A stretch of 64,000 nt of DNA. Origin: a virus. The position numbers and the translations under genes were made by a program. Of the stretch, positions 1-55,651 are shown in pieces. The stretch is from positions 1 through 64,000 of the IMG/VR virus record IMGVR_UViG_3300044613_003770, one strand, 5' to 3'. Under the pieces are notes generated by a model that had not been told where the DNA came from, ran no database searches, and saw only the letters and a program-made list of their open reading frames with translations. Numbering within the stretch: position 1 is the first letter of the stretch; each line of letters opens with the position of its first letter.

Positions 1-166
1 GGTATTACTGCAAATACCTCACCAATTACAGCAAACGCTGGTATTACTGCAAATACCTCACCAATTACAGCAAACGCTGGTATTACTGCAAATACCTCAC
101 CAATTACAGCAAACGCTGGTATTACTGCAAATACCTCACCAATTACAGCAAACGCTGGTATTACTG
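1..166 (+). repeat. 39-bp perfect tandem repeat, at least 4.25 copies (cut by window edge)
   Basis: ggtattactgcaaatacctcaccaattacagcaaacgct at 1, 40, 79, 118, partial at 157. Confidence 0.97.
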
Positions 167-5264: not shown

Positions 5265-5341
5265 CGCGGGGCAGTCAGTAGTGGTGCTGAACTAGTCTCA
5301 TAAGCTAGGATTCGGTGTGAGTTCGACTCTCACCTCCGCAA
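5265..5341 (+). tRNA. tRNA-Met(CAT), initiator-like acceptor, atypical
   Basis: C1:A72 mismatch, loop CTCATAA, T-loop TTCGACT; no encoded CCA. Confidence 0.8.
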
Positions 5342-6209: not shown

Positions 6210-6286
6210 CGGGATGTAACTCAGCTTGGTAGAGTGCTGCGTTTGGGACGCAGATGTCGCATGTTCGAATCGTGTCATCCCGACCA
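6210..6286 (+). tRNA. tRNA-Pro(TGG)
   Basis: Cloverleaf, TTTGGGA loop, CCA. Confidence 0.95.
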
Positions 6287-6290
6287 TTAG

Positions 6291-6362
6291 GGGGGTATAG
6301 CTCAGTGGTAGAGCGTTAGCTTTGCAAGCTAAATGTCTGGGGTTCGAATCCCCATGTCTCCA
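6291..6362 (+). tRNA. tRNA-Ala(TGC)
   Basis: G3:U70 pair, TTTGCAA loop. Confidence 0.93.
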
Positions 6363-40239: not shown

Positions 40240-40314
40240 GGGCTGTTAGTTAAGTGGATATAACAAGAAACTTCTAATTTTTAGTCGATGGTTCGATTCC
40301 ATCACGGCCTACCA
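40240..40314 (+). tRNA. tRNA-Arg(TCT)
   Basis: GGGCTGT/ACGGCCT acceptor, CTTCTAA loop, CCA. Confidence 0.9.
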
Positions 40315-40811: not shown

Positions 40812-40930
40812 TGTGAAATAATAAACTGCCAAATAATAAAAGGCTAAATAACAAAATAGCAAATAATAAAATAGCAAATAATAAAACGCTTAATAAACCC
40901 GTGGAATTCGACGGGTTAAAGGGGGTCGGA

Positions 40931-40973
40931 ACTTACGTTGCGGCGACCCCTACGGGGTCCAATCGCTGTAAGT
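40931..40973 (-). repeat. 43-bp element copy 1 (inverted)
   Basis: ACTTAC GTTGCGGC GACCCC TAC GGGGTC CAATCGCT GTAAGT. Confidence 0.95.
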
Positions 40974-41001
40974 TTTGGATTCAAGGTCGCAATTTGCGAC
41001 C

Positions 41002-41196
41002 TTATTTGATTTCGTAGCGATCAACAATCTCAAGCGTTTCCGTATCAAGATGGACAACAAAACCCTCTCTCCCTTTTTCAAGTGCGCGTTCTTCCGTCTC
41101 CCTGTCAAGATTTGTTTCTTTCCAGCTTGGAGGCAAACCCTTTGAGTGGACAATGATGCGGGATTGATTAAGGAAGTCTAGTTGGTATGCTCTCAT
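41002..41196 (-). CDS. hypothetical protein
   Basis: 64-aa ORF with A-rich leader. Confidence 0.55.
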   Translation of the reverse strand: MRAYQLDFLNQSRIIVHSKGLPPSWKETNLDRETEERALEKGREGFVVHLDTETLEIVDRYEIK

Positions 41197-41338
41197 ATTT
41201 CTTTTTTTATTTCTTTTTTTATTTCTTTTTTACCATCGCTGCGCACTCGTTTATTCTGAACGCGCTTCCAGTATTTGCGTAAGTGCTTCCACCATTGAAC
41301 GGTTGGAACACTTCCTTTGCTTTTTGCTGAACTACTCA

Positions 41339-41710
41339 TTATTTTTGTGCGAGGATTTGTCTGCCTACGATGACAGCATATTTTGCTTTGTCAATGCTTT
41401 TGTTTGAAACGACTTCGTAGAACTTCCCGATGTCTCGATACGGGTTGTAAGAAACCCACATCCTTGGTTGCAGCTTTGTGCTTTCACCAAGTAAGACAAG
41501 ATCACCCTCAACAAACGCATGGACATTTTTCTTTCTTTCGCGCAGGACTCTTTGACGACCTGCTTCTGATACTTTAAAGGTGACATTCTCAAGAGTGACT
41601 TTGCTGGCGTGAAGCCAAACACGCCAGCCCTTTGGAGTTTTTTCTTGGACGGAGAGTTGTTTTCTGTGGAGGTTAAAGTAAAGCCTAACTTTTTTGTTGG
41701 TAGTTTTCAT
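41339..41710 (-). CDS. conserved phage hypothetical protein
   Basis: YFNLH, FKVSEAGRQRVLRERKKNVHAFV.G, YNPY; promoter TTGACA-N16-TAGACT upstream. Confidence 0.8.
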   Translation of the reverse strand: MKTTNKKVRLYFNLHRKQLSVQEKTPKGWRVWLHASKVTLENVTFKVSEAGRQRVLRERKKNVHAFVEGDLVLLGESTKLQPRMWVSYNPYRDIGKFYEVVSNKSIDKAKYAVIVGRQILAQK

Positions 41711-41843
41711 GGGGATGGAGTTGCCGCTCTTATCGGGCGAGCGGCGAGCCGTCTGTCGATATTCTTTGTACTTTTACTTGAGAGAAGTCTAGCAGGGAGA
41801 GTAGATATGTCAACTATTTTTTATTCTTTTTTTTGAATTAAAA

Positions 41844-41886
41844 ACTTACACTCATCGGACCCCGTAGGGGTCGCCGCGATGTAAGT
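41844..41886 (+). repeat. 43-bp element copy 2
   Basis: ACTTAC ACTCATCG GACCCC GTA GGGGTC GCCGCGAT GTAAGT. Confidence 0.95.
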
Positions 41887-41909
41887 TTCCTCACATGCGG
41901 CAACCTATG

Positions 41910-42113
41910 TCACCAGAGATCGTGTTCGTCAATTAGCTGTTCCGTTCTGTCTACAAACTCTTGAATCAAACCCATAGGAATTTCAAACTTGGTAAGGACA
42001 TAACCATCAAAAACAAGATGCAATGCCACATCGACAATTTTCTTTTCTTCGATTGTTGCATGGACTAGGTAAAGCCCGTATTCAGTTTCGAGAGTAGTTC
42101 GAAAAATTTTCAT
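41910..42113 (-). CDS. hypothetical protein
   Basis: Own promoter TTGACA-N16-TAGCTT; start MKIFRTT. Confidence 0.6.
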   Translation of the reverse strand: MKIFRTTLETEYGLYLVHATIEEKKIVDVALHLVFDGYVLTKFEIPMGLIQEFVDRTEQLIDEHDLW

Positions 42114-42171
42114 CGCTTGCGACAAGCTATCACAAAGAAGACGGCTGTCAAGATTAAAAGAAGTTCGATGT

Positions 42172-42870
42172 TCATGCTGGCTCCAAAACAAAACCCGTTT
42201 CATCTTTTTTGGCAAGACCTTTTTCTTTAAGCCCGACGATTTTTCCCTTGCCATCGAGAAAGCGGAGATCGGTATCGTCTCCGTCTACCACATCAAAGCC
42301 CTTGAAACTTTGCGGCAAAGACTTGCGGAAAACCATTGCGACATTGCCACCGCTTGCAAGAAAAGCCTCGGCAATGTTTCCATTCGATTCAGAGCGAGAA
42401 AAGGTCAGGTGATAGTTTTTCGGCATCTCACCAGCGAGAAAAGCAGTCATGCGGTCGGGACTTTTCGTGTAGTCGTAAAACTGCACACTTGGGAAAGTAG
42501 CGAAAACATTTAGGCCGTTGCGTTTGATTTTCTCCCATGGCAAGTCACTTGTGAGGTTTAAGCGGAAGCAAGGTGTCATGCCTTTTTTTTCGGCAGACTT
42601 CATTGACTTTGCAATTTCTTTCCAAAGGTTGGCGAGGAAAGACTGCTTGTCGGTAAAAAACAAACGAGTCTTTGCGATTCGTGCGCGTTGGACGGAAGAC
42701 ATTGCCCCACGCCCTGCGGTGTTGAGACAAGCGGCGGCGCAACCTTTGCTTGCGTCTTTGCATACATTAAACCCCGAAAGGTTAGCGGGTGCAAGGTGCA
42801 AACCGTAGGTGATAAAACCCTTCTTCTCTCCCTTGCGCGTCTTGGCGTTTCCTGTGTTGAGTAGTGACAT
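42172..42870 (-). CDS. GP88-like phage protein with Cys cluster
   Basis: C..AS.GC...CL..AGRG, RLN.TSD, QFYDYTK, NYHLTFS, DGD.TDLRFLD; leaderless start MSLL. Confidence 0.8.
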   Translation of the reverse strand: MSLLNTGNAKTRKGEKKGFITYGLHLAPANLSGFNVCKDASKGCAAACLNTAGRGAMSSVQRARIAKTRLFFTDKQSFLANLWKEIAKSMKSAEKKGMTPCFRLNLTSDLPWEKIKRNGLNVFATFPSVQFYDYTKSPDRMTAFLAGEMPKNYHLTFSRSESNGNIAEAFLASGGNVAMVFRKSLPQSFKGFDVVDGDDTDLRFLDGKGKIVGLKEKGLAKKDETGFVLEPA

Positions 42871-42979
42871 GGCCAAAGCATAGCATTTGAGGCGAGCATG
42901 GCAAGAGATTTTCTTACAATTTTTTTTCCGATAAATAGTGTTTTTTTCTTGACAAGCCATAAGCCATTCATGCTTAGAA

Positions 42980-43022
42980 ACTTACGCCAATCGGACCCCT
43001 TCGGGGTCGCCGCGATGTAAGT
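42980..43022 (+). repeat. 43-bp element copy 3
   Basis: ACTTAC GCCAATCG GACCCC TTC GGGGTC GCCGCGAT GTAAGT. Confidence 0.95.
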
Positions 43023-43035
43023 TTTTCCTGTAGAC

Positions 43036-43066
43036 AAAAAAACCCCCGCCCTTTCGGGCGAGGGTT
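43036..43066 (-). terminator. intrinsic terminator
   Basis: Minus strand AACCCTCGCCC-GAAA-GGGCGGGGGTT followed by T run. Confidence 0.85.
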
Positions 43067-43080
43067 CGTTTGCTTTACGC

Positions 43081-43875
43081 TTACGCTCCAACGACGACGA
43101 GCGTTTCCATTTCCTCCCCCGCATCAGCGGGATCGATTTCGGCCTCGATGGTCGGGCGATGCCCAGCGATGCGGTCAAAGACCGATTGAGCAGTCATCGT
43201 GCGAAACGGCAACTTGGACAGATCACCGCCCTTGAGGTTTTCGGTGATGGAGTTGTAAAGCGTCCAGAGTGTGCCACCCTTGAACTCGTCATGGCGAGGG
43301 TTGCGAAACTCTTGCACGGCGGCGTAAATGTCACGGGCGGGAAACGCTTTGACATCCACAAGGTCGATCAGCAAGTCAGCGGCACGATCACGGGAAATTT
43401 CGGTTTCCTTGTAAAGCTCGATGCGCTTGCCCATGTCGGCCCAATGCGAGACAACGCGAGCGACTGCATCGGAGAGAACGCGAGGAAGGTCAGCGATGAT
43501 GTTCGTGGTGTGGCGGCGAGCCAACTTGATGTCGGAAGAGAAGCAAAGATTCTCGCAAACCATCATGCGATTCCCCACGCAAATGCTTGCGGCAAAGGAC
43601 TTGTCGTGTGCGTTGCGTAGACCAAGCACGATTTGACGATCAGAACCAGTGATGTCCGCGCCCTTGAGAGCAAACCCGCCAAAGTAGCGTTGACCGCCAC
43701 GGGCGAGCGAATGTTCTTCCAGCGACACTTCAAGCCCTGCGCGTCCGATTGCCTCACGAGTCATTTCGACAAGCGAGAAATGCGGGATGGGTTGGAAGCG
43801 GTCAGCGGCTTCGGGAGTCTCAACGCCCATGAGTTGCTCGGCGTTCACTTTGTTTTTTGCGATGATCAGTGACAT
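43081..43875 (-). CDS. DUF932-family protein
   Basis: PIPH..L, LRNAHDKS, G..MMVCENLCF, RRHT, TLW.LYN..TE. Confidence 0.8.
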   Translation of the reverse strand: MSLIIAKNKVNAEQLMGVETPEAADRFQPIPHFSLVEMTREAIGRAGLEVSLEEHSLARGGQRYFGGFALKGADITGSDRQIVLGLRNAHDKSFAASICVGNRMMVCENLCFSSDIKLARRHTTNIIADLPRVLSDAVARVVSHWADMGKRIELYKETEISRDRAADLLIDLVDVKAFPARDIYAAVQEFRNPRHDEFKGGTLWTLYNSITENLKGGDLSKLPFRTMTAQSVFDRIAGHRPTIEAEIDPADAGEEMETLVVVGA

Positions 43876-44042
43876 ATTGTTTTTTTCTATTGGTTGGAGT
43901 TGGATGCGCCATCAGCGGCGACAAGGACAAGGTAGCAAAACCAGCGAGTTTGTCCACACATTTTTCATTGTTTTTGTGTTTTTGTTTTTTGAGCCAGGTG
44001 TGCTTTTTTGCTTGACATGGCATAAGTGATTGAGGATCAAAA

Positions 44043-44085
44043 ACTTACACCCCCAAGACCCCTTCGGGGTCCGAACCATGTAAGT
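44043..44085. repeat. 43-bp element copy 4 (divergent spacers)
   Basis: ACTTAC ACCCCCAA GACCCC TTC GGGGTC CGAACCAT GTAAGT. Confidence 0.9.
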
Positions 44086-44138
44086 TTTTTAGGCATAAGT
44101 TAGGAAGGGATCGCACTTTGCGACCCCTTCCCGTTATG

Positions 44139-44453
44139 TCAACCCACCCTTGCGAAACTTCTGATTGGATGATCGCCAACTACCTGTGGCACAAAGTCAA
44201 TCGTCGGAGAGTCACCGAATTTGTTTTTGTAAGCTCGGAGAAAGGCTGTCAAGTCGCAATCTTCTTCAAGGTAGAAGTTTGATTTGTCTTGGTAGCTGTA
44301 GTGGCTTAACTTTACGCCAAGAGCTTCGACTTCCCGCTTTGGCACTTCAAGCCATCCATGACCTGCGTCAGTATGGAGCTTGAGGATGAGTGTCTTTTGT
44401 GGTTCGCTTTCGAGGTAGCCAACGCCGCCTCCTTCAAGATGCAATGATTTCAT
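44139..44453 (-). CDS. conserved phage/plasmid hypothetical protein
   Basis: HTDAGHGWL.V...S.YSY.....YLEEDCD. Confidence 0.75.
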   Translation of the reverse strand: MKSLHLEGGGVGYLESEPQKTLILKLHTDAGHGWLEVPKREVEALGVKLSHYSYQDKSNFYLEEDCDLTAFLRAYKNKFGDSPTIDFVPQVVGDHPIRSFARVG

Positions 44454-44588
44454 GTGTGTTAGGTTGAATGAGTTTGATGAGGTAGTCAATTACTTTTTGC
44501 GGCTGCTCATTAAAAAGAGGATGAGAGCCATTCCGATTATCCATGCGATATGCAATGTGTCCATTATGAATGATAAAAACAAGATGTT

Positions 44589-44900
44589 TCATTGTTTGGA
44601 ATGTTTGGTGTGAAAACCCACAAAGTCTTCTGCGAGGTTATTGATTAGTTCTTCTACAAAAGCAAAAGGGCTGGCATCGTCCATCGGGTTCAATTCAAAC
44701 TTGGAGATTGCTTCCCAAACTTCGATTTGTTTTTGGTCTTCTTGTTGATTGTCTACGCTGTATTCATCAGCGAGCAAAGCAAGAGCGAGCCTTTCGGCAC
44801 TCCAATCTTGCGGCCATTTAGAAAGGAAATGACCTGCGGCGATTAGGTATGCTTCGGCGTGAATGGGATTGTTGGTGTCTATGTGAATGTAGTCTTGCAT
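44589..44900 (-). CDS. acidic hypothetical protein
   Basis: 103-aa ORF. Confidence 0.6.
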   Translation of the reverse strand: MQDYIHIDTNNPIHAEAYLIAAGHFLSKWPQDWSAERLALALLADEYSVDNQQEDQKQIEVWEAISKFELNPMDDASPFAFVEELINNLAEDFVGFHTKHSKQ

Positions 44901-44909
44901 GGCTGTAGG

Positions 44910-45116
44910 TTAGTCGTTGGCGTGATGATTGTCAAGAATAAGTTGAAGTTCATCGCGGAGTTCTTCCTCGACTTCACTTTCGCCGCCAGAATATGCTTCC
45001 GCAAGCTCTAATGCTTGTTGGGCAATGTCTTTGAGCTGTTCAATTGTGTTTAGTAGTTCTTCGATTGTGGTCATGTCGATATGTGGGCAACAATTGTGGT
45101 TTGGTTTGTCTGTCAT
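44910..45116 (-). CDS. acidic helical hypothetical protein
   Basis: Likely start MTDKPN after an A/C-rich leader. Confidence 0.5.
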   Translation of the reverse strand: MTDKPNHNCCPHIDMTTIEELLNTIEQLKDIAQQALELAEAYSGGESEVEEELRDELQLILDNHHAND

Positions 45117-45129
45117 GTTGTTTTGTTGG

Positions 45130-45471
45130 TTAGTTTGTTGGGATGAATCTACGGGCGTGAATGTTAAGATTGGAACACCATTTTTTCCAGTTTTTGCCAT
45201 GAAAGTCATTGCGGCCATTTTTCTTGTGTGTGCCAAAGAATTTTGTTCTTTCGGTTATGTCAAGAGCGTGTGCGAGTTCATGCAAGAAAACTTCAGAAAA
45301 CAAATGGAAGTTTTGTAGGATTTGATTTGAAAGCTCAATTCTTTTTTCCTCTATACGATAGCAACCCAATCTTCTTTTTGTGTTTGTCCAAAGGACTGGA
45401 ATGTGGGTCATGTTATGCTGACGCAAGGTCAAGCGGATGTATTGTTCGGCTTCTTGGTGAGTGATTTTCAT
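45130..45471 (-). CDS. SprT-like zinc metalloprotease
   Basis: RRLG.Y...I.LS...LHELAHA...HG..WK. Confidence 0.85.
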   Translation of the reverse strand: MKITHQEAEQYIRLTLRQHNMTHIPVLWTNTKRRLGCYRIEEKRIELSNQILQNFHLFSEVFLHELAHALDITERTKFFGTHKKNGRNDFHGKNWKKWCSNLNIHARRFIPTN

Positions 45472-45515
45472 GCGGGGAAAGTTTGGGGGCTTTCGCCCCC
45501 TATGTCAACTATTTT

Positions 45516-45998
45516 TTAGACATCAGCAGGAATTTCTTCGTCCTCGTCGTATTCGACAAAGCTAAAGTTTTCTTTTGCAAACTCTATGACATCAGCATCA
45601 TCGACTTGGTTGTCGTCAATTTGACCTTCGGAGATGATAGCAGTCCCAGCAAACCAGCAACCGCCCTCAAAGTAGTCGAGCGTAAATTGATCGTTTGGAA
45701 ACATTTCAGACAGAGCGGCAATCGCTTGAAGTGGTGGACTCCAAGCAGTCATGAATGGAGCTTGAAAGTCGCAATCTTCAGAGATGAGTTGATCAGCAAC
45801 TTCGCGTTGCTCTTGTTCACTCAAGTCCCATTTAGTTCCCCAGTTTTCAAGTCTCCAATTATACCATCCATTGCCCTCAAGCAATTCTGGTGGTGTGGGT
45901 TTGATTTTCTCAAAAGAAAGACCATTTTCTTTTAGATAGCTTTCCAATTCTGGAGAGCAATCCATGACCGACAATTTATTTTCGTTCCAGTTAGGCAT
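45516..45998 (-). CDS. DUF1281/YubB-like ferredoxin-fold protein
   Basis: MPNW..N, WYNWR..NWGTKW, F.TAWSPP, YFE.G..FAG. Confidence 0.85.
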   Translation of the reverse strand: MPNWNENKLSVMDCSPELESYLKENGLSFEKIKPTPPELLEGNGWYNWRLENWGTKWDLSEQEQREVADQLISEDCDFQAPFMTAWSPPLQAIAALSEMFPNDQFTLDYFEGGCWFAGTAIISEGQIDDNQVDDADVIEFAKENFSFVEYDEDEEIPADV

Positions 45999-46025
45999 GG
46001 CGGCAATGTAGGTTAGTGGTTGGGG

Positions 46026-46199
46026 TTAGTCAAGATTTTTTATTAGTGTGTGGGAGTATCTCAAGACATCTCCACAATCATCACAAGGTTCTCCGTTGTC
46101 TTGATAAAAGTCAGGAGAGACATGGACTTCTTCATTTGTTTCATCATTGATCCAAACATGAAGAACATTTTCATCGTTTATTTTGATCCAATCAGACAT
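46026..46199 (-). CDS. 57-aa acidic protein with CxxC
   Basis: MSDWIKINDENVLHVW...FYQDNGEPCDDCG; own promoter; not in track. Confidence 0.65.
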   Translation of the reverse strand: MSDWIKINDENVLHVWINDETNEEVHVSPDFYQDNGEPCDDCGDVLRYSHTLIKNLD

Positions 46200-46230
46200 G
46201 GCTTTAGTATGTGTTATTTTTTGGGGTTAG

Positions 46231-46482
46231 TCAATAGGTTTTTGCAAGTAAAACAAGAGGCTTCAATGTGATTGGCTTTTCAGCAACATAAAAGAAAAAA
46301 CCATATTCCAAAACCTCAATGTCGCCATCGACTTCGGCAAGTGAAACATAGTCATCGCCATGATTGTCGGCAACGAATGGGCCTTCATCATCATGCCCGA
46401 TAAAGTAAAGCGTATCGTTTAGATCGACAGCATAAGCGTCACTGAGTGCTTCGTGTAGTTGTTCAAGTGTGGTTGTTTGCAT
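46231..46482 (-). CDS. acidic hypothetical protein
   Basis: TTGACT-N16-CATACT-N6-ATG. Confidence 0.7.
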   Translation of the reverse strand: MQTTTLEQLHEALSDAYAVDLNDTLYFIGHDDEGPFVADNHGDDYVSLAEVDGDIEVLEYGFFFYVAEKPITLKPLVLLAKTY

Positions 46483-46508
46483 GGCAGTAGTATGTGTTAT
46501 TTTCGGGG

Positions 46509-46649
46509 TTAGTCAACAAGAAATCTGCGCTTCCATTGTGATTCTTGCACCTGCTTATCAAGCCAAGATTGTTGTTCAAAGATGCGCGATCCGTAAATTG
46601 ATTTGCGGTCGCGTGTGAATAGTGACAGGATGTGGTTGATGATTTGCAT
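46509..46649 (-). CDS. 46-aa peptide
   Basis: TTGACA-N16-TAAGTT-N6-ATG; MQIINHILSLF...; not in track. Confidence 0.6.
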   Translation of the reverse strand: MQIINHILSLFTRDRKSIYGSRIFEQQSWLDKQVQESQWKRRFLVD

Positions 46650-46814
46650 GGGGGAAACTTAACACAAAGACGCGAGGTGTCAAATTTTATTTTCAGAATA
46701 AACTGCAATTTTCTTCTTGACAAATCAACACTAGCAAATAGCAAAATAGTAAATAGCAAATCAGTTAATAGCTAATAGACTACAGGCGCGGCTGTAAGTC
46801 ATTGAGGATTAAAA

Positions 46815-46857
46815 ACTTACACCAATCGGACCCCGTAGGGGTCGCCGCGATGTAAGT
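46815..46857 (+). repeat. 43-bp element copy 5
   Basis: ACTTAC ACCAATCG GACCCC GTA GGGGTC GCCGCGAT GTAAGT. Confidence 0.95.
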
Positions 46858-46879
46858 TCTTGGCGACCAATGGGTTATG

Positions 46880-47158
46880 TTATTCCTCGTCGCAATCCTC
46901 AATCGTATCCGATTGCGACACTTCGGGATTGAACGGGCAAGCTTCCAAGACTCCCCAGCATTCTTTCCCTTGGAAGGTGAAGGATACACCCCACACAACC
47001 CAATTGTATTGCAACTCATCGACAATCTCGCGAAATTGCAGATCGTCAACCTTGCTTGTTGCTATCCTTTGGGGAATGGCAGTGAGGGCGGCGGCTTCCG
47101 CGAGAGCGGCGGCGTATTCTTCGGGCGAAACTTCGGAGGCGAGGTAGGTGATGGACAT
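46880..47158 (-). CDS. acidic hypothetical protein (N-terminus related to 48553..48690)
   Basis: TTGCGT-N16-TAACTT-N6-ATG. Confidence 0.7.
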   Translation of the reverse strand: MSITYLASEVSPEEYAAALAEAAALTAIPQRIATSKVDDLQFREIVDELQYNWVVWGVSFTFQGKECWGVLEACPFNPEVSQSDTIEDCDEE

Positions 47159-47257
47159 GGGAATAAGTTAATCGATTTTAAGAGAAACGCAACAAAAAAG
47201 TCATTTTTTATTTTTTTTATTTTTACTTGACAAATTGTAACTTATTCATTTTCAAAA

Positions 47258-47300
47258 ACTTACACCTATCGGACCCCGTAGGGGTCGCGGCGGTGTAAGT
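47258..47300 (+). repeat. 43-bp element copy 6
   Basis: ACTTAC ACCTATCG GACCCC GTA GGGGTC GCGGCGGT GTAAGT. Confidence 0.95.
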
Positions 47301-47594
47301 TATTCATTTTCAAGCGGTTATGATCGCGCCCCCACCACAGAGGCGCGATCTTTTATCCACCCACAAAATTATTCTTGCAATGCGTTTTTGAAGCACCCTG
47401 CCCAAGTCAACGCGAGGCAAAGCCAAAAAACAATAAAGTTTAGATCGTGTGGCACAATGTCATACACTCTCACAATCGAAAAAATTGCAATGTGTAAAGA
47501 AGAAAAGAAAAGACAAAGAGCGGCAGATTTCATTTTTTTTTATTTTTAAGGTTGAAAGGTTGGGCCTTTTAGTGTGATGCCCAGCACCGATTTT

Positions 47595-47876
47595 TTATTG
47601 AGCGGCAAAGGTCTTTTCGATTTTCCCGCATTTGAAATGGCGGACGGCTTCGGGTTTGAAGCTGAACCAGCCTTGATTGTTTCGATTGATTGCAGAGAAG
47701 TATCCAGCCGCCTTCAATCCATCAGTTCCAGCAGAGCCAGTTCCTTTGATCAAACCAATGTATTTGTCCTTGGCGTTGATTTGACGAATCGTGCCATCCT
47801 TCTTTTCAAAGGTGATCGAAAAGAATTTTCCTTTCGTGGCGGCGATCAGTTGTGCGATTTCGTTTTGTGTGGTCAT
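47595..47876 (-). CDS. SH3/WYL-like beta-barrel phage protein
   Basis: GKFFSITFEKKDGTIR.IN...W.SF. Confidence 0.7.
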   Translation of the reverse strand: MTTQNEIAQLIAATKGKFFSITFEKKDGTIRQINAKDKYIGLIKGTGSAGTDGLKAAGYFSAINRNNQGWFSFKPEAVRHFKCGKIEKTFAAQ

Positions 47877-47887
47877 GTTTTTGTTGG

Positions 47888-48022
47888 TTATTGTTTTGAG
47901 ATCATTTCCCGTTCCATCTCGTCGATTTCTTCGGGGGTCATGGTATCCTCGATTTCATGCGCGGCATGGAACATGGCGAGCAATTCAAGGGAATCAGCGT
48001 GGGCGAGTTGGTCAATGGACAT
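47888..48022 (-). CDS. 44-aa acidic peptide
   Basis: TTGCTA-N16-TAACTT-N6-ATG; MSIDQLAHADSLELL...; not in track. Confidence 0.65.
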   Translation of the reverse strand: MSIDQLAHADSLELLAMFHAAHEIEDTMTPEEIDEMEREMISKQ

Positions 48023-48063
48023 GAGAGAAAGTTAGTTGATTTTGAAAGAATAGCAAGAAAAAA

Positions 48064-48258
48064 TTAACCGATTTTCAAATTTTCAACTCGGCTAGATGCA
48101 ACGGTATTGACATCGCCGCAGTATGGGTCGCGGTAAATGATGATGAACGCGCCGTCGAGAGTGTCGCGGTCGGTGACGCTTCCCGTCAAATTCATTCCGC
48201 AGTAGGTGAATTCAACAAGGGTATTTAAGCGGGGGCGGGTGGTGGTCGTGTTGGACAT
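48064..48258 (-). CDS. small beta-rich protein, paralogue 1
   Basis: TTGCGT-N16-TAACTT-N6-ATG; paralogue at 49455. Confidence 0.75.
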   Translation of the reverse strand: MSNTTTTRPRLNTLVEFTYCGMNLTGSVTDRDTLDGAFIIIYRDPYCGDVNTVASSRVENLKIG

Positions 48259-48404
48259 GTAAGAAAGTTATCACAACTAACTCGAAACGCAACAAAAAAA
48301 ACAAAAATCTTTTTCGCCCAGTTGCAATTTTTTTCTTGACAAATAGAATGGGGGGGCTATTGGGGGGGCTGAAGGGAAGATTCATAACTCATTGAAAATC
48401 AAAA

Positions 48405-48447
48405 ACTTACACCCATCGGACCCCTTCGGGGTCGCCGCGATGTAAGT
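48405..48447 (+). repeat. 43-bp element copy 7
   Basis: ACTTAC ACCCATCG GACCCC TTC GGGGTC GCCGCGAT GTAAGT. Confidence 0.95.
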
Positions 48448-48552
48448 TTCACGGCAACCCCTCACCACTACATTTGCGCCGATATTATGGCAACCACAAG
48501 CCAAATCGCGGCATTTATTCCAATCAAAATTCCAAGTATTTCTTTCATGTTT

Positions 48553-48690
48553 TTATCCTTCCTTTTCGATGTGTTCAAGATACTCCGCGAACGCGAGTTC
48601 GGCGGCTTCCGCGAGGACGGCATCACGCTCCTCGATGGAAATTTCACTGGCAAAGTAGGTGGCGGCGGCGGTAGTGAGGTCGTTGGACAT
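48553..48690 (-). CDS. 45-aa acidic peptide
   Basis: MSNDLTTAAATYFASEISIEERDAVLAEAAEL...; TTGCGT-N16-TAACTT-N6-ATG; not in track. Confidence 0.7.
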   Translation of the reverse strand: MSNDLTTAAATYFASEISIEERDAVLAEAAELAFAEYLEHIEKEG

Positions 48691-48797
48691 GCAAGAAAGT
48701 TAGCATGGGATTCAGATAACGCAACAAAAAAGTGTTTTTTATTTATTTTTTTTTGTGTGTTTTTTCTTTACTTTTTGCAATTCGTTGAGCGTAAGAA

Positions 48798-48840
48798 ACT
48801 TACAGCTATCGGACCCCGTAGGGGTCGCGGCGGTGTAAGT
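48798..48840 (+). repeat. 43-bp element copy 8
   Basis: ACTTAC AGCTATCG GACCCC GTA GGGGTC GCGGCGGT GTAAGT. Confidence 0.95.
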
Positions 48841-48964
48841 TTTTGATTTCCAATGACTTACAACGGCAGCGGCAATGTAGTTATGCTATGCACTATGTGC
48901 CATACTACTACAAGCGTAGTAGTAAAGCACACAGCGTTTGCAATGATGTCTTGTAGTTCTTCAC

Positions 48965-49192
48965 TCATACAGACAAGTCGCAGTCTTCTTCTAGAAATTC
49001 CATTGCGGCTTCTTGTGCGTAGTCAAGTAGCTCACTCATGGGAGTCATGCTGTCTGCTTCTTCTATCATCTCTTCCAATGTGTCCACGTGATCACATAGA
49101 AGAGCGGTATCAGGTAGATCATCGAGTGACAAGCCTGTGATGGCGTAGACTTGTGCGTTGATCATCTTTCGTGCTTTGTTTCGTGCGCTCAT
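48965..49192 (-). CDS. acidic hypothetical protein
   Basis: GLSLDDLPD motif; A/C-rich leader. Confidence 0.65.
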   Translation of the reverse strand: MSARNKARKMINAQVYAITGLSLDDLPDTALLCDHVDTLEEMIEEADSMTPMSELLDYAQEAAMEFLEEDCDLSV

Positions 49193-49454
49193 GGTGTGTG
49201 TGTTGTTATTGGTTGATTGGTGTAGTGTCTTTCATATTATTATGCTTGTGTGTGTTAGTTATGCTTAACATAGGATTGAAGATGTGCAAGCGCATACATA
49301 GTCGCGCCAAAGGTTAAAAAACATATAGCGTCGAACACTTCGCTTCGTCCTCCGTAGATACAGAAGGCGCAAAGGCTAAAGACAGGCGACATGGTGATGA
49401 TGGCAGAGCCAAGGATTGTGATGATGTGTTTCATTTTTTTTCTATGTGTTATGT

Positions 49455-49649
49455 TTACCAGACTTTGATGATTTCAATTTGATTCGAACCGATAAAAGCG
49501 ATGTCGTTGCAAAGATCGCGATAGATGATGACAAAGCCGCCGTCGAGCGTGTTCCTATCGGTGACGCTACCGCAGAAGCGACGACCTTCATAGCGAAAGT
49601 CTACAGTAGAGTTAATGCGTGGGCGGGTGGTGGTAGTTGTGTTGGACAT
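49455..49649 (-). CDS. small beta-rich protein, paralogue 2
   Basis: TTGTGT-N16-TAACTT-N6-ATG; GSVTDR.TLDG.F.IIYRD shared with 48064. Confidence 0.75.
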   Translation of the reverse strand: MSNTTTTTRPRINSTVDFRYEGRRFCGSVTDRNTLDGGFVIIYRDLCNDIAFIGSNQIEIIKVW

Positions 49650-49763
49650 GGGAGAAAGTTAGCAGATGAGAGAGGGAACACAAGAAAAAAATCATTTATT
49701 TTTTTTTACGAAACTGCAATTTTTTTCTTGACAAATAGATATGCGGGGGGGTTTGGGGGGGCG

Positions 49764-49946
49764 CAAATAGCAAATGAATAAATAGCAAATTATCAAATAG
49801 CAAATAGCAAATGAATAAATAGTAAATAGATTAGCGATTGGGTAATGATTAGCGTGGCGGTAATCATTAGCGTGGCAGTCATGTATTCGCGTGGAATCCT
49901 TAGTGTGGAGGTAATCATTAGCGTGGAACAAATCATTAGCGTGGAA
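49764..49946 (+). repeat. AAATAGC heptamer tract followed by about 6 iteron-like TAATCATTAGCGTGG units
   Basis: Heptamer variants at 49764-49830; mostly 18-bp-period units at 49841-49946. Confidence 0.85.
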
Positions 49947-50038
49947 CATAGGTTTCGGGGGTGGCGGTCGCGTAAGTTTTCGGGGTGGGTCTGGGCATAA
50001 GTTGGGCGGGGTGGTTTCCCACCCCGCCTTGCCTTGGG

Positions 50039-50236
50039 TCATGCCTTGCGCCACGAGCGCAAGACTTGCGCCGCATAGTCGCGGGGGACATTAAAACTCT
50101 TCCCGTCTTTGTAAATGCCCGCGCCATTGGGAGTCATGACATAGTTTCGGATCGTGAAGAGGTGGAAATTTCCACAAGGGGAAAAATGGGAGTTCGTGCG
50201 AAAATTGCCTTTTCTGAGATAGCTTTTGATTTTCAT
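50039..50236 (-). CDS. basic hypothetical protein
   Basis: 65-aa ORF. Confidence 0.55.
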   Translation of the reverse strand: MKIKSYLRKGNFRTNSHFSPCGNFHLFTIRNYVMTPNGAGIYKDGKSFNVPRDYAAQVLRSWRKA

Positions 50237-50291
50237 GAGTCTGATTTTTTAAGGTTGGCAGGGCCGCCCTTGCGGCCCTGCTTGTCGTGGT

Positions 50292-50636
50292 TTAGCCCTT
50301 GGCGATACCTTGCCAAGTGGCGCGGGTTGCGGTTTGTCCTTCAACCCTCCCAAGAGCGGCGGCCTTGCAAAGGGTCTGGAATTTTTCGACCGCTTTTTTT
50401 TCAGCGGCGGACATAAAGGAAAGGGCGGATTCCTTGTCAGCATTGGAAACACTCGCGCTTGCCTTCGTGGTGATTTCCTCGCCGACGATTTCCAGCGCAA
50501 GCGTGAAGCTGTAGGCGTGACCATCGGGACTTGCTCCCATAGCGAGAGCGATTTCGCCAATGGTGGATGTTCCTTTGATGGGAAGCGCGATCTTGCTCGC
50601 GCTGGGCTTCGTGGTGGTGGTGGTGGTGGTGGTCAT
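50292..50636 (-). CDS. hypothetical protein with poly-Thr N-terminus
   Basis: MTTTTTTTTKPSASK...; hairpin GCAGGGCCGC/GCGGCCCTGC downstream. Confidence 0.7.
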   Translation of the reverse strand: MTTTTTTTTKPSASKIALPIKGTSTIGEIALAMGASPDGHAYSFTLALEIVGEEITTKASASVSNADKESALSFMSAAEKKAVEKFQTLCKAAALGRVEGQTATRATWQGIAKG

Positions 50637-50924
50637 GTGATGGAGTCGCTCGCGGCGACAAAGGAAAGATGCCACAAGCGGGAAAAATTGAAAGATTTTT
50701 CTTCGATTTTCTGAAAAAAGTTTTTTCAACGAAATGCGAAATTTTCTTGACAGCCTCCCCCCATTTCTCGGAAAAATTGCAAACGAACATCGCAGCCATC
50801 GGGGGGGGGACACTTTTTTCAATCTCCCCTAAAAATTACAATATTAGTATTTTCGTTGGCCTCAAAAAAAATCCGCCACTTAATTTCAAAAAACCTAATA
50901 AAATATTTAGTGTAATCATTAAGT

Positions 50925-52642: not shown

Positions 52643-52978
52643 ATGAATCACATATTTTGCTCTAACTGCGGGAACAAGATACAATATAATTTAGCAAAAC
52701 CAAACTTTTGTACAAAGTGTGGTAATTCACTATCGTCTCTAACCGCTTCGAGCCAAGTGGTTGAAAAAAAAGTTGTGCCAAAATTGGATATTGATCTTGA
52801 AGAAGATGAAACCGATATCGATGATATACCGAACTTAAGAAAAATCGCAGTTGAAATTGAAAATTTTTCTGAAAATTCATCGTTCACATTAGGAAATTTA
52901 TTTGGCACTCCAACCCAAGCATTCAAAGGGCGTAAAAACCGTTCTGTAGATGAATTTATTGATGAAAAGAAAGCCTAA
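52643..52978 (+). CDS. zinc-ribbon protein
   Basis: FCSNCG...FCTKCG plus acidic tail. Confidence 0.75.
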   Translation: MNHIFCSNCGNKIQYNLAKPNFCTKCGNSLSSLTASSQVVEKKVVPKLDIDLEEDETDIDDIPNLRKIAVEIENFSENSSFTLGNLFGTPTQAFKGRKNRSVDEFIDEKKA

Positions 52979-53663
52979 ATATAAATTTGAGGATTTTTCT
53001 GAAATCATAGATTCTTCAATCAAAAGACAAAGAGCAAAATGGCAGTTAAATGCCATTAACTGGTTTGATTTTGATGATGTAGAACAGATAATTAAGGTCC
53101 ATATTCATAAAAAATGGCATATGTGGGATCAAGAACGCCCATTAGAGCCATGGATAGGTAGGATCATCTCTAATCAGATTAGAAATTTAATTAGAAATCA
53201 TTATGGTAATTATATAAAGCCATGTAATGGTTGTCAATTTAGTCTTGATGATGATAAATGCTCCATAACTGCAAGTAATTTGCAAGACTCACAATGCAAA
53301 TTATACGAAAAATGGGAAAGTCAAAAAAAAGCTGGATTAGAGCTTAAAACTACACTTTCTATAGAAAATCATATGAGCGAAGTTTGTTCTAAGCCAGATG
53401 ATGATTTTTGTTATGAATCTTCTGTAGAGAAATTAAATCAATATATGAAAAAAGAGCTAAATCCAATTCATTATAAAGCTTATAAGATGTTATTTTTCGA
53501 AGATTGCAATGAAGAAGATGTGGCAAAATTTATGGGATACAAAACTAATGAAAAAAAACGAAAAGCTGGTTATCGCCAAGTCAAAAATCTTAAAAAAACA
53601 TTTCAAGCCAAGGCCGAGGAAATAATTAAAAAATTTGATATCATTATTCATGAACCTAACTAA
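52962..53663 (+). CDS. phage sigma70-like (ECF-size) sigma factor
   Basis: Region 2-like DDVEQ...W....L.PWI.RI..NQIRN..R; region 4-like HTH L...YKML......EDVAKFMG; Cys insert between. Confidence 0.7.
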   Translation: MKRKPKYKFEDFSEIIDSSIKRQRAKWQLNAINWFDFDDVEQIIKVHIHKKWHMWDQERPLEPWIGRIISNQIRNLIRNHYGNYIKPCNGCQFSLDDDKCSITASNLQDSQCKLYEKWESQKKAGLELKTTLSIENHMSEVCSKPDDDFCYESSVEKLNQYMKKELNPIHYKAYKMLFFEDCNEEDVAKFMGYKTNEKKRKAGYRQVKNLKKTFQAKAEEIIKKFDIIIHEPN

Positions 53664-54699
53664 AGAACAACAAGAATTTATCGCAAAAGAAGCAAAGAAT
53701 AATACAAATTTAAATGAATTAACTCAAAAATGCTTTAATAACGATGATTTAGATGGTCGCTCCAAAGAAGGGCGGTTAGTTCGTCAATTTTTAATTGAAA
53801 ATGAAATTAAATTTATTACAAGTCGTCGTCCAAAAAAAGATGAAATTAATTTTTCACAACAACAAAAAGATTTTATTATACAACAAGCGGAAGCTGGCTT
53901 ATCTTCTTTAAAAATAGCTGAAATAATTTTTCCAGATAGAGATGTAAAGCCTTTAAGCAACGAACAAAGGAGTGTTTTAGAAGCAATTAAAGAAATAAAT
54001 CCTGATTTTCTACCATCACAAGATTCTGGGGCATTAAATGATTATATAGCCCCAAAATCACCCCCAAGGATAGTTAAAAAGATTAATGATGCTACTGGGA
54101 TGAATTTAGATGAAGCAAAATTAAATAGACCAATGAAAATTTGTGTCGAAAGATTGGGTATTAATTTAAATAATTCTAGATTCGTTAAAATCGTCAATAA
54201 CTATCTATCAAAAAGCGATCGGGAGTTATTTGAACAAGAATTTATTCGTTTAACATGGGATAAGCCAGATTTAACTGCAGATGAAATTAATTTATATTTA
54301 AATGTCTGCAAGGAAATCATTAATTTGGAAGTAATTAGCTGTCATTTGAATAAATTAAATGAAATGTTTGATATAGCTGATGATCAAAACGAAATGAGCG
54401 TTCGTTTATCAGAGATAATTAAAGCAAAAAGCAGCGAATACCATCAATGCGAAAATCGCATAGAAAATTTAACAAAAAAACTTCAAGGTGATAGAGCTGA
54501 AAGAATGAAAAGCAGACAAAAAGAAAATGCTTCGATTTTATCAATAGTTCAATTATTTCAAGAACAAGATGAAAGACAAAACATGGTTCGTATAGCAGAA
54601 ATGCAAAAAGAATTAGTCAAAGAAGAGGCTAATCGTTTAGAAGGAATGTCTGAATGGAAAGCCAGGGTCTTAGGAATATATCAAGATGATGTCATTTAA
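53650..54699 (+). CDS. helical hypothetical protein (possible terminase small subunit)
   Basis: Two HTH-like repeats plus C-terminal coiled coil, two genes upstream of terL. Confidence 0.5.
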   Translation: MNLTKEQQEFIAKEAKNNTNLNELTQKCFNNDDLDGRSKEGRLVRQFLIENEIKFITSRRPKKDEINFSQQQKDFIIQQAEAGLSSLKIAEIIFPDRDVKPLSNEQRSVLEAIKEINPDFLPSQDSGALNDYIAPKSPPRIVKKINDATGMNLDEAKLNRPMKICVERLGINLNNSRFVKIVNNYLSKSDRELFEQEFIRLTWDKPDLTADEINLYLNVCKEIINLEVISCHLNKLNEMFDIADDQNEMSVRLSEIIKAKSSEYHQCENRIENLTKKLQGDRAERMKSRQKENASILSIVQLFQEQDERQNMVRIAEMQKELVKEEANRLEGMSEWKARVLGIYQDDVI

Positions 54700-55651
54700 A
54701 TGCAAAGAGTGTAATCAGGAATTTCCTGGTTTAAAAAACCTCCATACGCATATCAAAAAACATGATATGTTTCTTGGGGACTATTATGTAAAACATTTTC
54801 AAAGAAAAAATAAATTAACGGGCGAATTATTACCATTTAAAAATTATGATGATTATTTTGAAAAAGATTTCTCTCAACCAAAACAACTTCAAGAATGGTG
54901 TGAAAAAGCATCTTTTATGGATGTTAAAGAATATATTATCGAATTAATGGATAGGAGAATCAAGGCAAAGAATCTTAATTCAGGTTTAAGTTCTCTTGAG
55001 CTTTGGACTGCTGGTTTGCCTGATATTGACATGTATAAAAAATACTTTGGGAGTTATACTGATGCATGTAAAAAATGTTTAATCGAACCAATGTTTAATG
55101 GAAAATTACCCAAAGAGTTTTGGAATGATTATTCAAACATAAAAATTCTAATTGATACTAGAGAACAAAAACCATTATGGTTTAATAAATCAGAGATTTT
55201 AAAATTAGATATAGGAGATTATGCTGTTTCTGGAGATAAATATGATTATACTTATGTAGACCGCAAATCTTTCAATGACTTCTGTGGTACAGTTACATCA
55301 TCTTACAATAGATTTGTTAAAGAGTTGGAGAGGTGCAGGAGTTTAGGCTGTTATTTATTTATTGTTATAGAAGCACCCCTTCATAAGATGGATGAATACA
55401 ACAAAAATAGTTATAAAAAATTCAACCTTAATTATGTTTTTCATAACATGAGGCAGCTACAAAGAGATTACAGCAATTGTTGTCAATTTGTCTTTAGTGG
55501 CTCTAGAGGTTTGAGTGCAGAATTAATACCAAAATTATTGATACTCGGAAAATCCTTATGGAAGACTGATATGCAGTATTTTTGGTCAAAAAGAATAGAA
55601 AAATATGGCTTGGATAACAGGAGTACAAAAGAGGAGAAAAAGATTTCCTAA
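54689..55651 (+). CDS. C2H2 zinc finger + ERCC4/XPF-type nuclease
   Basis: CKEC...H...H; IDTREQ, L..GDY, DRKS..D, E..R, IVIE. Confidence 0.8.
   Translation: MSFKCKECNQEFPGLKNLHTHIKKHDMFLGDYYVKHFQRKNKLTGELLPFKNYDDYFEKDFSQPKQLQEWCEKASFMDVKEYIIELMDRRIKAKNLNSGLSSLELWTAGLPDIDMYKKYFGSYTDACKKCLIEPMFNGKLPKEFWNDYSNIKILIDTREQKPLWFNKSEILKLDIGDYAVSGDKYDYTYVDRKSFNDFCGTVTSSYNRFVKELERCRSLGCYLFIVIEAPLHKMDEYNKNSYKKFNLNYVFHNMRQLQRDYSNCCQFVFSGSRGLSAELIPKLLILGKSLWKTDMQYFWSKRIEKYGLDNRSTKEEKKIS

Follow-up and report, generated by a model that had tools for sequence, protein, structure and literature searches.

This analysis concerns a repeated palindromic element that lies between the gene units of a small island in the genome of an uncultured freshwater phage. 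The DNA that was read, hereafter the window, is a stretch of 64,000 nucleotides (positions 1 to 64,000) of IMG/VR virus record IMGVR_UViG_3300044613_003770, which is 85,303 bp long and estimated to be 68% complete. The island spans positions 40931 to 50850 on the minus strand and is a hyperplastic region of about 26 small genes in about 10 units, limited on the left by convergent plus-strand genes and a tRNA gene and on the right by a divergent promoter region. Its GC content is 0.454, compared with 0.333 in the rest of the record. Pfam searches placed products of its minus-strand genes in the L5-gp82-like, GP88, DUF932, SprT-like and DUF1281_C families; 16 other tested products had no Pfam family above the cut-off, and for nine of these 16 PHROGs supplied only one family, its function unknown. 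An earlier reading of the sequence alone (the first-pass annotation) had drawn attention to a module richer in GC than its flanks that encodes DUF932, SprT, GP88-like and DUF1281 products, and both the composition and the family matches bear this out, with the L5-gp82-like product in addition.

Core copies and their place in the island

The core of the element has the pattern ACTTAC-N8-GACCCC-N3-GGGGTC-N8-GTAAGT. A pattern search of the window that allowed up to 3 mismatches returned 8 copies, all with 0 mismatches, and no match was obtained in 100 dinucleotide shuffles of the window. All 24 arm bases and the 8-3-8 spacing are invariant in these copies, and successive copies lie 393-2772 bp apart. 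The eight invariant 43-bp copies listed in the first-pass annotation are therefore exact, and the scan of the whole genome that it proposed recovers the same eight from the 85,303-bp record and no further ones. The units between copies consist, as had been described, of one to several genes on the minus strand.

Copy 1 (40931-40973, plus strand) follows the last island gene and faces the convergent plus-strand genes; judged by its N8 sequences, it is opposite in orientation to the other seven, which lie on the minus strand. Copy 2 (41844-41886) is found about 23 nt past the stop codon of the gene at 41910-42254, copy 3 (42980-43022) between the terminator of the DUF932 unit and the GP88 promoter region, copy 4 (44043-44085) upstream of the DUF932 unit, copy 5 (46815-46857) 22 nt past the stop codon of the gene at 46880-47158, copy 6 at 47258-47300, copy 7 (48405-48447) about 20 nt past a small membrane-peptide open reading frame (ORF), and copy 8 (48798-48840) between two palindromes (48777-48803 and 48835-48861) of the P1-like type defined below. 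Inspection by eye also confirmed the right-half remnant noted earlier at 49954-49977 (minus strand), a degenerate half element of the form GGGGGT, 9 nt, GTAAGT, which stands after the island's first unit.

On the gene strand, the order of features is stop codon, in some cases a canonical terminator, the element, a conserved box composed of TTGTCAAG and an A-tract, an AT-rich stretch and a promoter. The element is intergenic, behind the preceding unit and ahead of the next promoter region, as the first-pass annotation had placed it. The box at 48335-48341 (minus strand) reads CTTGACA on the plus strand, and others start at 42948, 44011, 46716, 47226, 49727 and 50746. An antisense promoter formed by the plus-strand TTGACA boxes was rejected, since no -10 box stands at a fixed distance; tracts of G7-8 adjoin two of the TTGACA boxes (48345-48370 and 49745-49760). 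An example of a sigma70-type promoter of the leaderless kind is found at 48259-48299 on the minus strand (TTGCGT, 16 nt, TAACTT, 6 nt, ATG), and the geometry TTGnnn-16/17-TAnnnT-5..8-ATG occurs at 13 of the 26 island genes. Many phage genes between window positions 1591 and 49683 likewise begin 5-8 nt past a TTGACA-16/17-TAnnnT promoter (examples lie upstream of 1625, 13095, 21590, 35188 and 38359), and no Shine-Dalgarno sequences are visible. Because the genes begin 5-8 nt past the promoter, their mRNAs are predicted to be leaderless.

Where an element precedes a gene, its central palindrome (P2, below) lies 114-182 nt upstream of the next ATG. The island's first unit has no element upstream, and the last unit has one behind it: the inverted copy at 40931 in the window and, in the related complete genome G004, a tandem pair 96 bp apart that faces convergent genes. 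A second complete genome, G003, agrees with G004 and the window in having no element before the first unit and one behind the last. With none before the first unit and one behind the last, the element therefore belongs to the 3′ side of the units or to their boundaries. To judge from this placement, it is not simply an upstream activator.

The composite element, its symmetry and its possible readers

About 15 viral contigs carry the 43-mer as well, in 26 stretches, as do 50 further metagenome contigs; it has no match among 185,579 prokaryote genomes and none among isolate phages and plasmids. No close isolate relative of the window phage was found, and literature searches for the motif strings returned nothing, or an unrelated primer only. 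The window's island is present in freshwater or lake metagenome runs, and the carriers of the element form a clade of uncultured freshwater phages with giant tape-measure proteins. The complete genomes G004 (133.8 kb) and G003 (146.9 kb) have one island each, with 10 and 9 copies respectively, and P2 is found inside elements only.

Alignment of the sequences flanking the core revised its extent. As a core, the 43-bp pattern proposed at first is exact; it is not the full element, for a 27-bp palindrome overlaps its promoter-side arm. The full element is a dyad-symmetric composite of about 85-97 bp with the order P1, 8 nt, P2, 8 nt, P1. P1 is the 27-bp palindrome GTAAGT-CGTTGA-N3-TCAACG-ACTTAC, and its last hexamer serves as the 'left arm' of the 43-mer; P2 is the invariant 15-bp GC palindrome GACCCC-N3-GGGGTC. 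Lineages B and C have two intact P1 copies; lineage A, to which the window belongs, and lineage D have retained the promoter-side P1, the other being reduced to its inner hexamer. In the window the promoter-side 27-bp palindrome persists in five to six copies, for example at 44022-44048 (of the type GTAAGT-NN-TTGA-N3-TCAA-NN-ACTTAC, with 1 mismatch), with equivalents at 46794-46820, 47237-47263 and 48384-48410. Together with the conserved sequence on its promoter side, the element makes up a repeated module of about 150-250 bp.

Conservation within the composite is uneven in a regular way. Of the 277 arm pairs in 864 kb of DNA that carries the element, 275 are spaced exactly 31 nt apart with an exact P2 between them. 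The only variants of the P2 core that were found lie in one viral contig, L066, at 5278-5320 and 6279-6323; one has a stem of 7 bp, with the arms 33 nt apart, and the other a stem with one mismatch. The N8 segments are asymmetric, alike within one genome and different among at least five lineages. All three palindromes have 3-nt centres, and that of P2 is only ever GTA, TAC, GAA or TTC, which amounts to G-W-A on one strand in every case; the complementary members are interchangeable in the same N8 context, so that the orientation of the centre flips. Two or three complete elements may also stand in tandem, with a 96-bp period and an 11-nt linker of the GAC-N5-GTC type, as 'empty cassettes'; these were seen at the distal end of the island and in the interior of some arrays (L044:4134-4272, which is G004 64134-64272, and L024:2803-3037). 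In lineage B only, the stretch from the element to the next gene contains 11-bp palindromes of the form GTTAG-N-CTAAC, in up to three repeats with T runs between them (L044:13780-13900 and further promoter regions of this lineage), and they look like a second set of putative protein sites.

Single strands of the element fold strongly, with z-scores of -2.6 to about -7.6 across DNA and RNA folds, and the gene-strand RNA folds reach -25 to -45 kcal/mol. Pairing was counted in a gapless alignment of 68 distinct element copies and compared with shuffled partners. Three local hairpins give 84.2% paired cells compared with 83.5% in the shuffles, one long hairpin gives 85.2% compared with 84.3%, and covariation scores are inside the shuffle range. 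Given shuffled pairing nearly equal to the real and no covariation, sequence conservation therefore accounts for the pairing, and both structures, three local hairpins or one long hairpin, were rejected as having no covariation signal above the shuffles. Cells that pair one N8 with the other are 28% Watson-Crick, about random; a staggered-bulge pairing of the two N8 segments was likewise set aside, for it is seen in the window lineage only and the pooled pairing is no better than random. Variation at P1 positions 7-8 and 20-21 is uncompensated. The downstream P1 is dominated by G.T pairs and the upstream P1 by A.C pairs, a mirrored pattern that points to a large dyad-symmetric duplex site and not to one-strand RNA; a strand-specific RNA signal built on G.U versus A.C pairs was rejected for the same reason. 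An integration host factor (IHF) consensus within P1 was also discarded, since it fits only copies with a loop that ends in A.

We read the composite as double-stranded DNA that would be recognized by a two-fold symmetric partner. At the same time, three features suggest at least transient hairpins: the 3-nt centres, the G-W-A rule and the P2 centre that flips. The flipping in particular implies hairpin formation at least during replication. Of the rigid hairpin element that had been described, the rigidity of arms and spacing stands, and the hairpin reading has no support from covariation.

It is possible that the element is transcribed with the 3′ end of each unit and acts as RNA, whether in intrinsic termination, as a hairpin that stabilises the 3′ end or in processing. 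In the window, four of the eight copies begin 20-23 nt past a stop codon with no other terminator, the gene-strand folds are strong, A and T runs flank the hairpin in lineage A, and the N8 behind P2 is U-rich in lineages B and D. A strand-specific RNA function is difficult to reconcile with the mirrored wobble asymmetry and with the use of a P2 loop triplet and its complement in the same context. The element has no match in Rfam, where a scan of the window returned only the tRNA (40240-40311) and three chance-level hits, and it is not called by a terminator scan; the base of its stem is AT-rich. Several copies, moreover, follow a canonical terminator, such as that of the DUF932 unit (scan stem at 43040-43067 on the minus strand, followed by a T run on that strand), which stands just before core copy 3. 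We consider an RNA-level role improbable.

A further clue to what might read the element comes from bacteria. The P1 pattern alone was found in 36 bacterial contigs, some of which possibly hold chance palindromes. One metagenome-assembled genome (MAG) of the Microscillaceae (Bacteroidota; G008, stretches L067, L090, L097 and L103-L122) carries about 284 P1-like copies at up to 2 mismatches, compared with 0 for a reversed-pattern control; the repeated palindrome, GTAAGT-NN-TTGA-N3-TCAA-NN-ACTTAC, shares all 20 fixed bases with the phage P1. Four other MAGs (two Fibrobacter, one Pedosphaera and one gammaproteobacterial) hold 2-7 copies. The Microscillaceae copies that were examined are single intergenic palindromes with unrelated flanks and without P2, and none stands beside the Y1 transposase genes of that MAG; a link between the bacterial repeats and the transposases associated with repetitive extragenic palindromes (RAYTs) was not found. 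A few small MAG contigs carry P1, a GC-rich core and P1 again, with other cores. In one of them, L095 (positions 1-1302, from a Flavobacteriaceae MAG bin), P1, a 16-nt GC-rich core and P1 precede a DUF932 gene whose protein is 37% identical to that of the window. These contigs suggest that 'P1 - GC core - P1' boundaries form a wider family in which the core varies. The occurrence of P1 with such cores and in bacteria indicates that it predates the P2 core and is more widespread; its reader may be a host protein.

The same evidence bears on a different explanation, in which P1, P2 or both are high-affinity sites for a sequence-specific phage or host regulator that switches the whole early island on or off from a distance, the breakpoints described below being a by-product of repeated sequence. 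Invariant arms with drifting N8 spacers and loops, rigid spacing, dyad symmetry with mirrored mismatches, P1 positions 7-8 and 20-21 that behave like non-contacted spacer bases, and pairing wholly accounted for by conservation would all be expected of an operator array, and the approximately 284 palindromes of the Bacteroidota MAG suggest a host reader protein. Action over such distances has precedent: on IncP plasmids, KorB acts from operators as far as 1 kb away from promoters. However, the elements, at 114-182 nt from the start codon, overlap neither -35 nor -10 boxes, the first unit has none before it, and the one behind the last unit has no promoter to control. No regulator candidate was found either: ParB (ParB_N) had no match in genomes G000, G002, G003 and G004, for which a ParB/KorB-type clamp was rejected, and annotated domains, solved-structure searches and PHROG searches revealed no DNA-binding candidate among the island and neighbouring genes. 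We regard an operator array as a serious alternative and, on balance, an unlikely one.

Cassette exchange across the island

Comparison of relatives shows that whole cassettes have been gained, lost, replaced and translocated between modules while the backbone stayed collinear. The backbone from PhoH to the tape-measure gene is collinear in G000, G003 and G004, at protein identities of 30-80%; the order of the common island genes (DUF932, GP88, SprT-like and two small proteins) differs among the same three genomes. In G001, the unit between the elements at 46815 and 47258 is swapped for unrelated DNA, with breaks at both elements. Contigs L012 and L013 carry an 865-bp cassette with its element that is not present at this place in G004, where the flanks are 97% identical and a homologue of the cassette is found elsewhere in the genome. 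The crossover of this 865-bp indel, the only one that could be mapped, falls in the conserved promoter-side flank and not in the core, and fits homologous recombination of the general kind better than a dedicated site-specific reaction.

The same pattern emerges from a larger sample. Clustering sorted the 178 inter-element segments into 56 groups, and the difference between arrays is one of whole cassettes, as in [7,5,1,4,6,2,0,9], [7,5,1,4,6,3,2,0,19] and [7,5,1,-,6,2,34,3]. Synteny breakpoints lie within 60 bp of a P2 centre in 27 of 120 cases, compared with approximately 9.5% expected, the events being non-independent. A recurrent position is -47, at the outer edge of P1, and homology ends downstream at variable points, from +97 to +210. 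One relative has an extra element between two genes where the window has none. The GC content of the island is 0.43-0.45 in G000, G003 and G004, whose backbones have 0.33, 0.38 and 0.40, and similar island composition despite differing backbones fits a shared cassette pool. The first-pass annotation had described a cassette array partitioned by the element, and the gain, loss, replacement and re-ordering that break at it among relatives confirm that view.

An array of this kind invites comparison with sites of dedicated recombination. In such a model, similar to integron attC sites, the palindromes would fold or be extruded as hairpins or a cruciform, and a recombinase or structure-specific nuclease would cut or exchange them, so that cassettes leave and enter as units. 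As in attC arrays, an element stands at the 3′ end of each cassette, the last included. The 'empty' tandem elements 96 bp apart, with their 11-nt linker, the strong single-strand folds and the 3-nt centres can be cited in the same direction, as can the flipping G-W-A centre of P2, a GNA triloop. GNA triloops are very stable DNA hairpin loops. Directly ahead of the terminase gene, 4 kb from the island (54686-55651), is a gene for an ERCC4-family (XPF/Mus81-type) nuclease with a C2H2 zinc finger at its N terminus; this may be the phage's structure-specific nuclease.

The search for an enzyme was otherwise negative. The tyrosine recombinase family PF00589 is absent from G000, G002, G003 and G004, in a search that did match its controls; serine recombinases and the Y1 transposase family of HUH enzymes (PF01797) are likewise absent from these four phages. 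With no matching enzyme in the two complete genomes, attC/integron, serine-invertase and HUH/REP mechanisms were rejected (REP, repetitive extragenic palindrome). The first-pass annotation had also proposed virion RNA polymerase as a gene to look for alongside the element. T7-type RNA polymerase (RNA_pol) gave no match in the same genomes, in a weak search that left its controls unmatched too, and the very large ORFs are tape-measure proteins and not N4-type virion polymerases, which led us to reject N4-like hairpin promoters; thus neither recombinase, HUH nor virion polymerase genes were found to accompany the element. Beyond the lack of an enzyme, the absence of covariation, the random N8:N8 pairing, the crossover outside the core, the variable downstream limits and the possession by cassettes of their own promoters all argue against a dedicated recombination site, as does the lack of supported circle or junction contigs among the assembled contigs of public runs. 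We give this explanation little credence. A related proposal, to which we assign a similarly low probability, is that the triple palindrome is the site of a dedicated protein that exchanges autonomous cassettes among co-infecting lytic phages through cruciform or hairpin DNA, as an 'integron without integrase'. The exchange protein could be a structure-specific nuclease, a recombinase, or a host factor that also reads the bacterial P1-like repeats.

Far less probable still, in our estimation, is that the element is a selfish repeat, similar to REPs or to miniature inverted-repeat transposable elements (MITEs), that has spread through the intergenic DNA of the island and has no function for the phage. 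The extra copy between two genes in one relative and the resemblance of P1 to a high-copy bacterial palindrome family would suit such a repeat, but there is one syntenic island per genome, with one orientation and one position class, and the core is invariant across at least five lineages. No transposase was found, and neither target duplications nor scattered insertions were seen.

Relation to known systems and neighbouring features

The closest functional counterpart is found in T4-type phages. Their promoter-early stem-loops (PeSLs) are cassettes that pair a promoter with a stem-loop; they are concentrated in hyperplastic regions, and indels and mini-circles arise through them (Arbiol et al. 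2010, PMC2839356; Comeau et al. 2014, PMC4122927). As with PeSLs, we find a repeated intergenic module that combines a stem-loop-capable sequence with a sigma70-type early promoter; copies that are concentrated among small genes of a hyperplastic region, here one island of about 10 kb per genome; indels and replacements between close relatives that are bounded by the motifs; and no dedicated recombinase. In contrast, PeSLs are simple, variable G/C hairpins in or next to the promoter and occur in several regions, whereas the present element, confined to one island and 114-182 nt away from the next start codon, is a triple palindrome that is invariant, its 8-15-8 spacing included. Most of the mRNAs are predicted to lack a leader, and the phages have a giant tape-measure gene and are not known T4-type myoviruses. 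Terminator activity and mini-circles have been demonstrated for PeSLs (PMC2839356, PMC4122927); the present module is known from sequence alone. A categorically new system, as the first-pass annotation envisaged, is not upheld, since the arrangement is functionally equal to the PeSLs, and nothing in the analysis points to the role in DNA entry that it also raised. Of the four known analogues that it listed as inexact matches, attC, REP/HUH sequences and N4 hairpins do not fit, and the T4-type stem-loops are the functional counterpart.

With moderate confidence, evenly poised between belief and doubt, we interpret the element as part of a PeSL-like boundary and promoter module that serves as a homology patch for cassette exchange and is bound by a specific protein. 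The composite marks the 3′ boundary of each transcription unit in one hyperplastic island of small early or host-interaction genes, where the module may act as a transcription barrier or insulator, protein-bound or hairpin-forming, before the next sigma70-type and mostly leaderless promoter. Its near-identical copies would offer homology patches by which general recombination could swap cassettes within and between co-infecting relatives, and exchange would proceed without a dedicated recombinase. The invariance of arms and spacing may reflect binding by a protein complex, probably two-fold symmetric and possibly a host factor: invariance so extreme implies a specific binding partner, and a host factor is possible because P1 matches a palindrome repeated in some bacterial genomes. 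The mechanism is most likely a novel, more elaborate form of a known principle.

Several observations weigh against a PeSL-like module. The 24 of 24 bases are invariant across lineages whose proteins are just 30-75% identical, which exceeds what a terminator or a mere homology patch needs. PeSL stem-loops lie in or next to the promoter, and P2 lies well upstream of the start codon. With respect to a transcription barrier, the terminator scan does not call the element, the window lineage has no U-tract behind P2 and T runs only past the AT-rich outer arm, and a second terminator seems redundant in the several units that have a canonical one just ahead of the element. With respect to exchange, about half of the breakpoints are away from elements, the breakpoint counts do not represent independent events, and some indels of single genes are found where there is a short intergenic repeat and no element. 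In the public runs, Logan contigs break at repeats and the X8 joints are weak, with sides of 21-30 nt; the X20 RNA contigs lie within gene bodies only.

The likeness to the other known systems is more limited. Integron attC sites are also imperfect palindromes behind each cassette, the last included, in one-directional arrays with high turnover; here there is no IntI or tyrosine recombinase, there are no R or L boxes or conserved extrahelical bases, the cassettes have their own promoters, and the mappable crossover is outside the core. REPs and bacterial interspersed mosaic elements (BIMEs) are likewise mosaics of palindromic units with short conserved linkers, extragenic at the 3′ ends of genes, and P1 matches the family of about 284 palindromes in the Microscillaceae MAG. 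The phage element differs in having no GTAG or CGTC tag (the arms begin GTAAGT), no RAYT and a single island, and the bacterial copies seen are single palindromes without P2. N4-type hairpin promoters share short hairpins, 3-nt loops and proximity to early genes, whereas here the largest ORF is the tape measure, the weak search found no RNA_pol family match, and the element follows units and does not precede the first.

What is known of how phages exchange their fast-turnover accessory and counter-defence genes comes largely from the work on T4-type PeSLs. The same cassette logic appears here in an unrelated clade of uncultured freshwater phages, whose boundary element is much more elaborate and shows absolute conservation. 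Because P1 matches a palindrome present in many copies in a bacterium, a host protein is a conceivable partner. A single defined island, with dozens of natural array variants in public metagenomes, makes cassette exchange and the sequences that it requires directly testable.

The surroundings of the island complete the description. The window phage encodes rIIA/rIIB, a clamp-loader-like ATPase, PhoH, a sigma factor, a terminase and a tape-measure protein of 3286 aa. In G000, G002 and G004 the island adjoins the PhoH-sigma-terminase block, and the sigma-factor gene (Sigma70_r2; 52950-53663, plus strand, in the window), given here as context only, is about 2 kb from the island in these three genomes and about 9 kb from it in G003. 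The tRNA gene at 40240-40311 (62.7 bits) lies 620 bp from the island's distal boundary. Short-repeat runs resembling AAATAGCAAAT are located beside three of the boundaries, at 40840-40885, 46735-46775 and 49760-49830.

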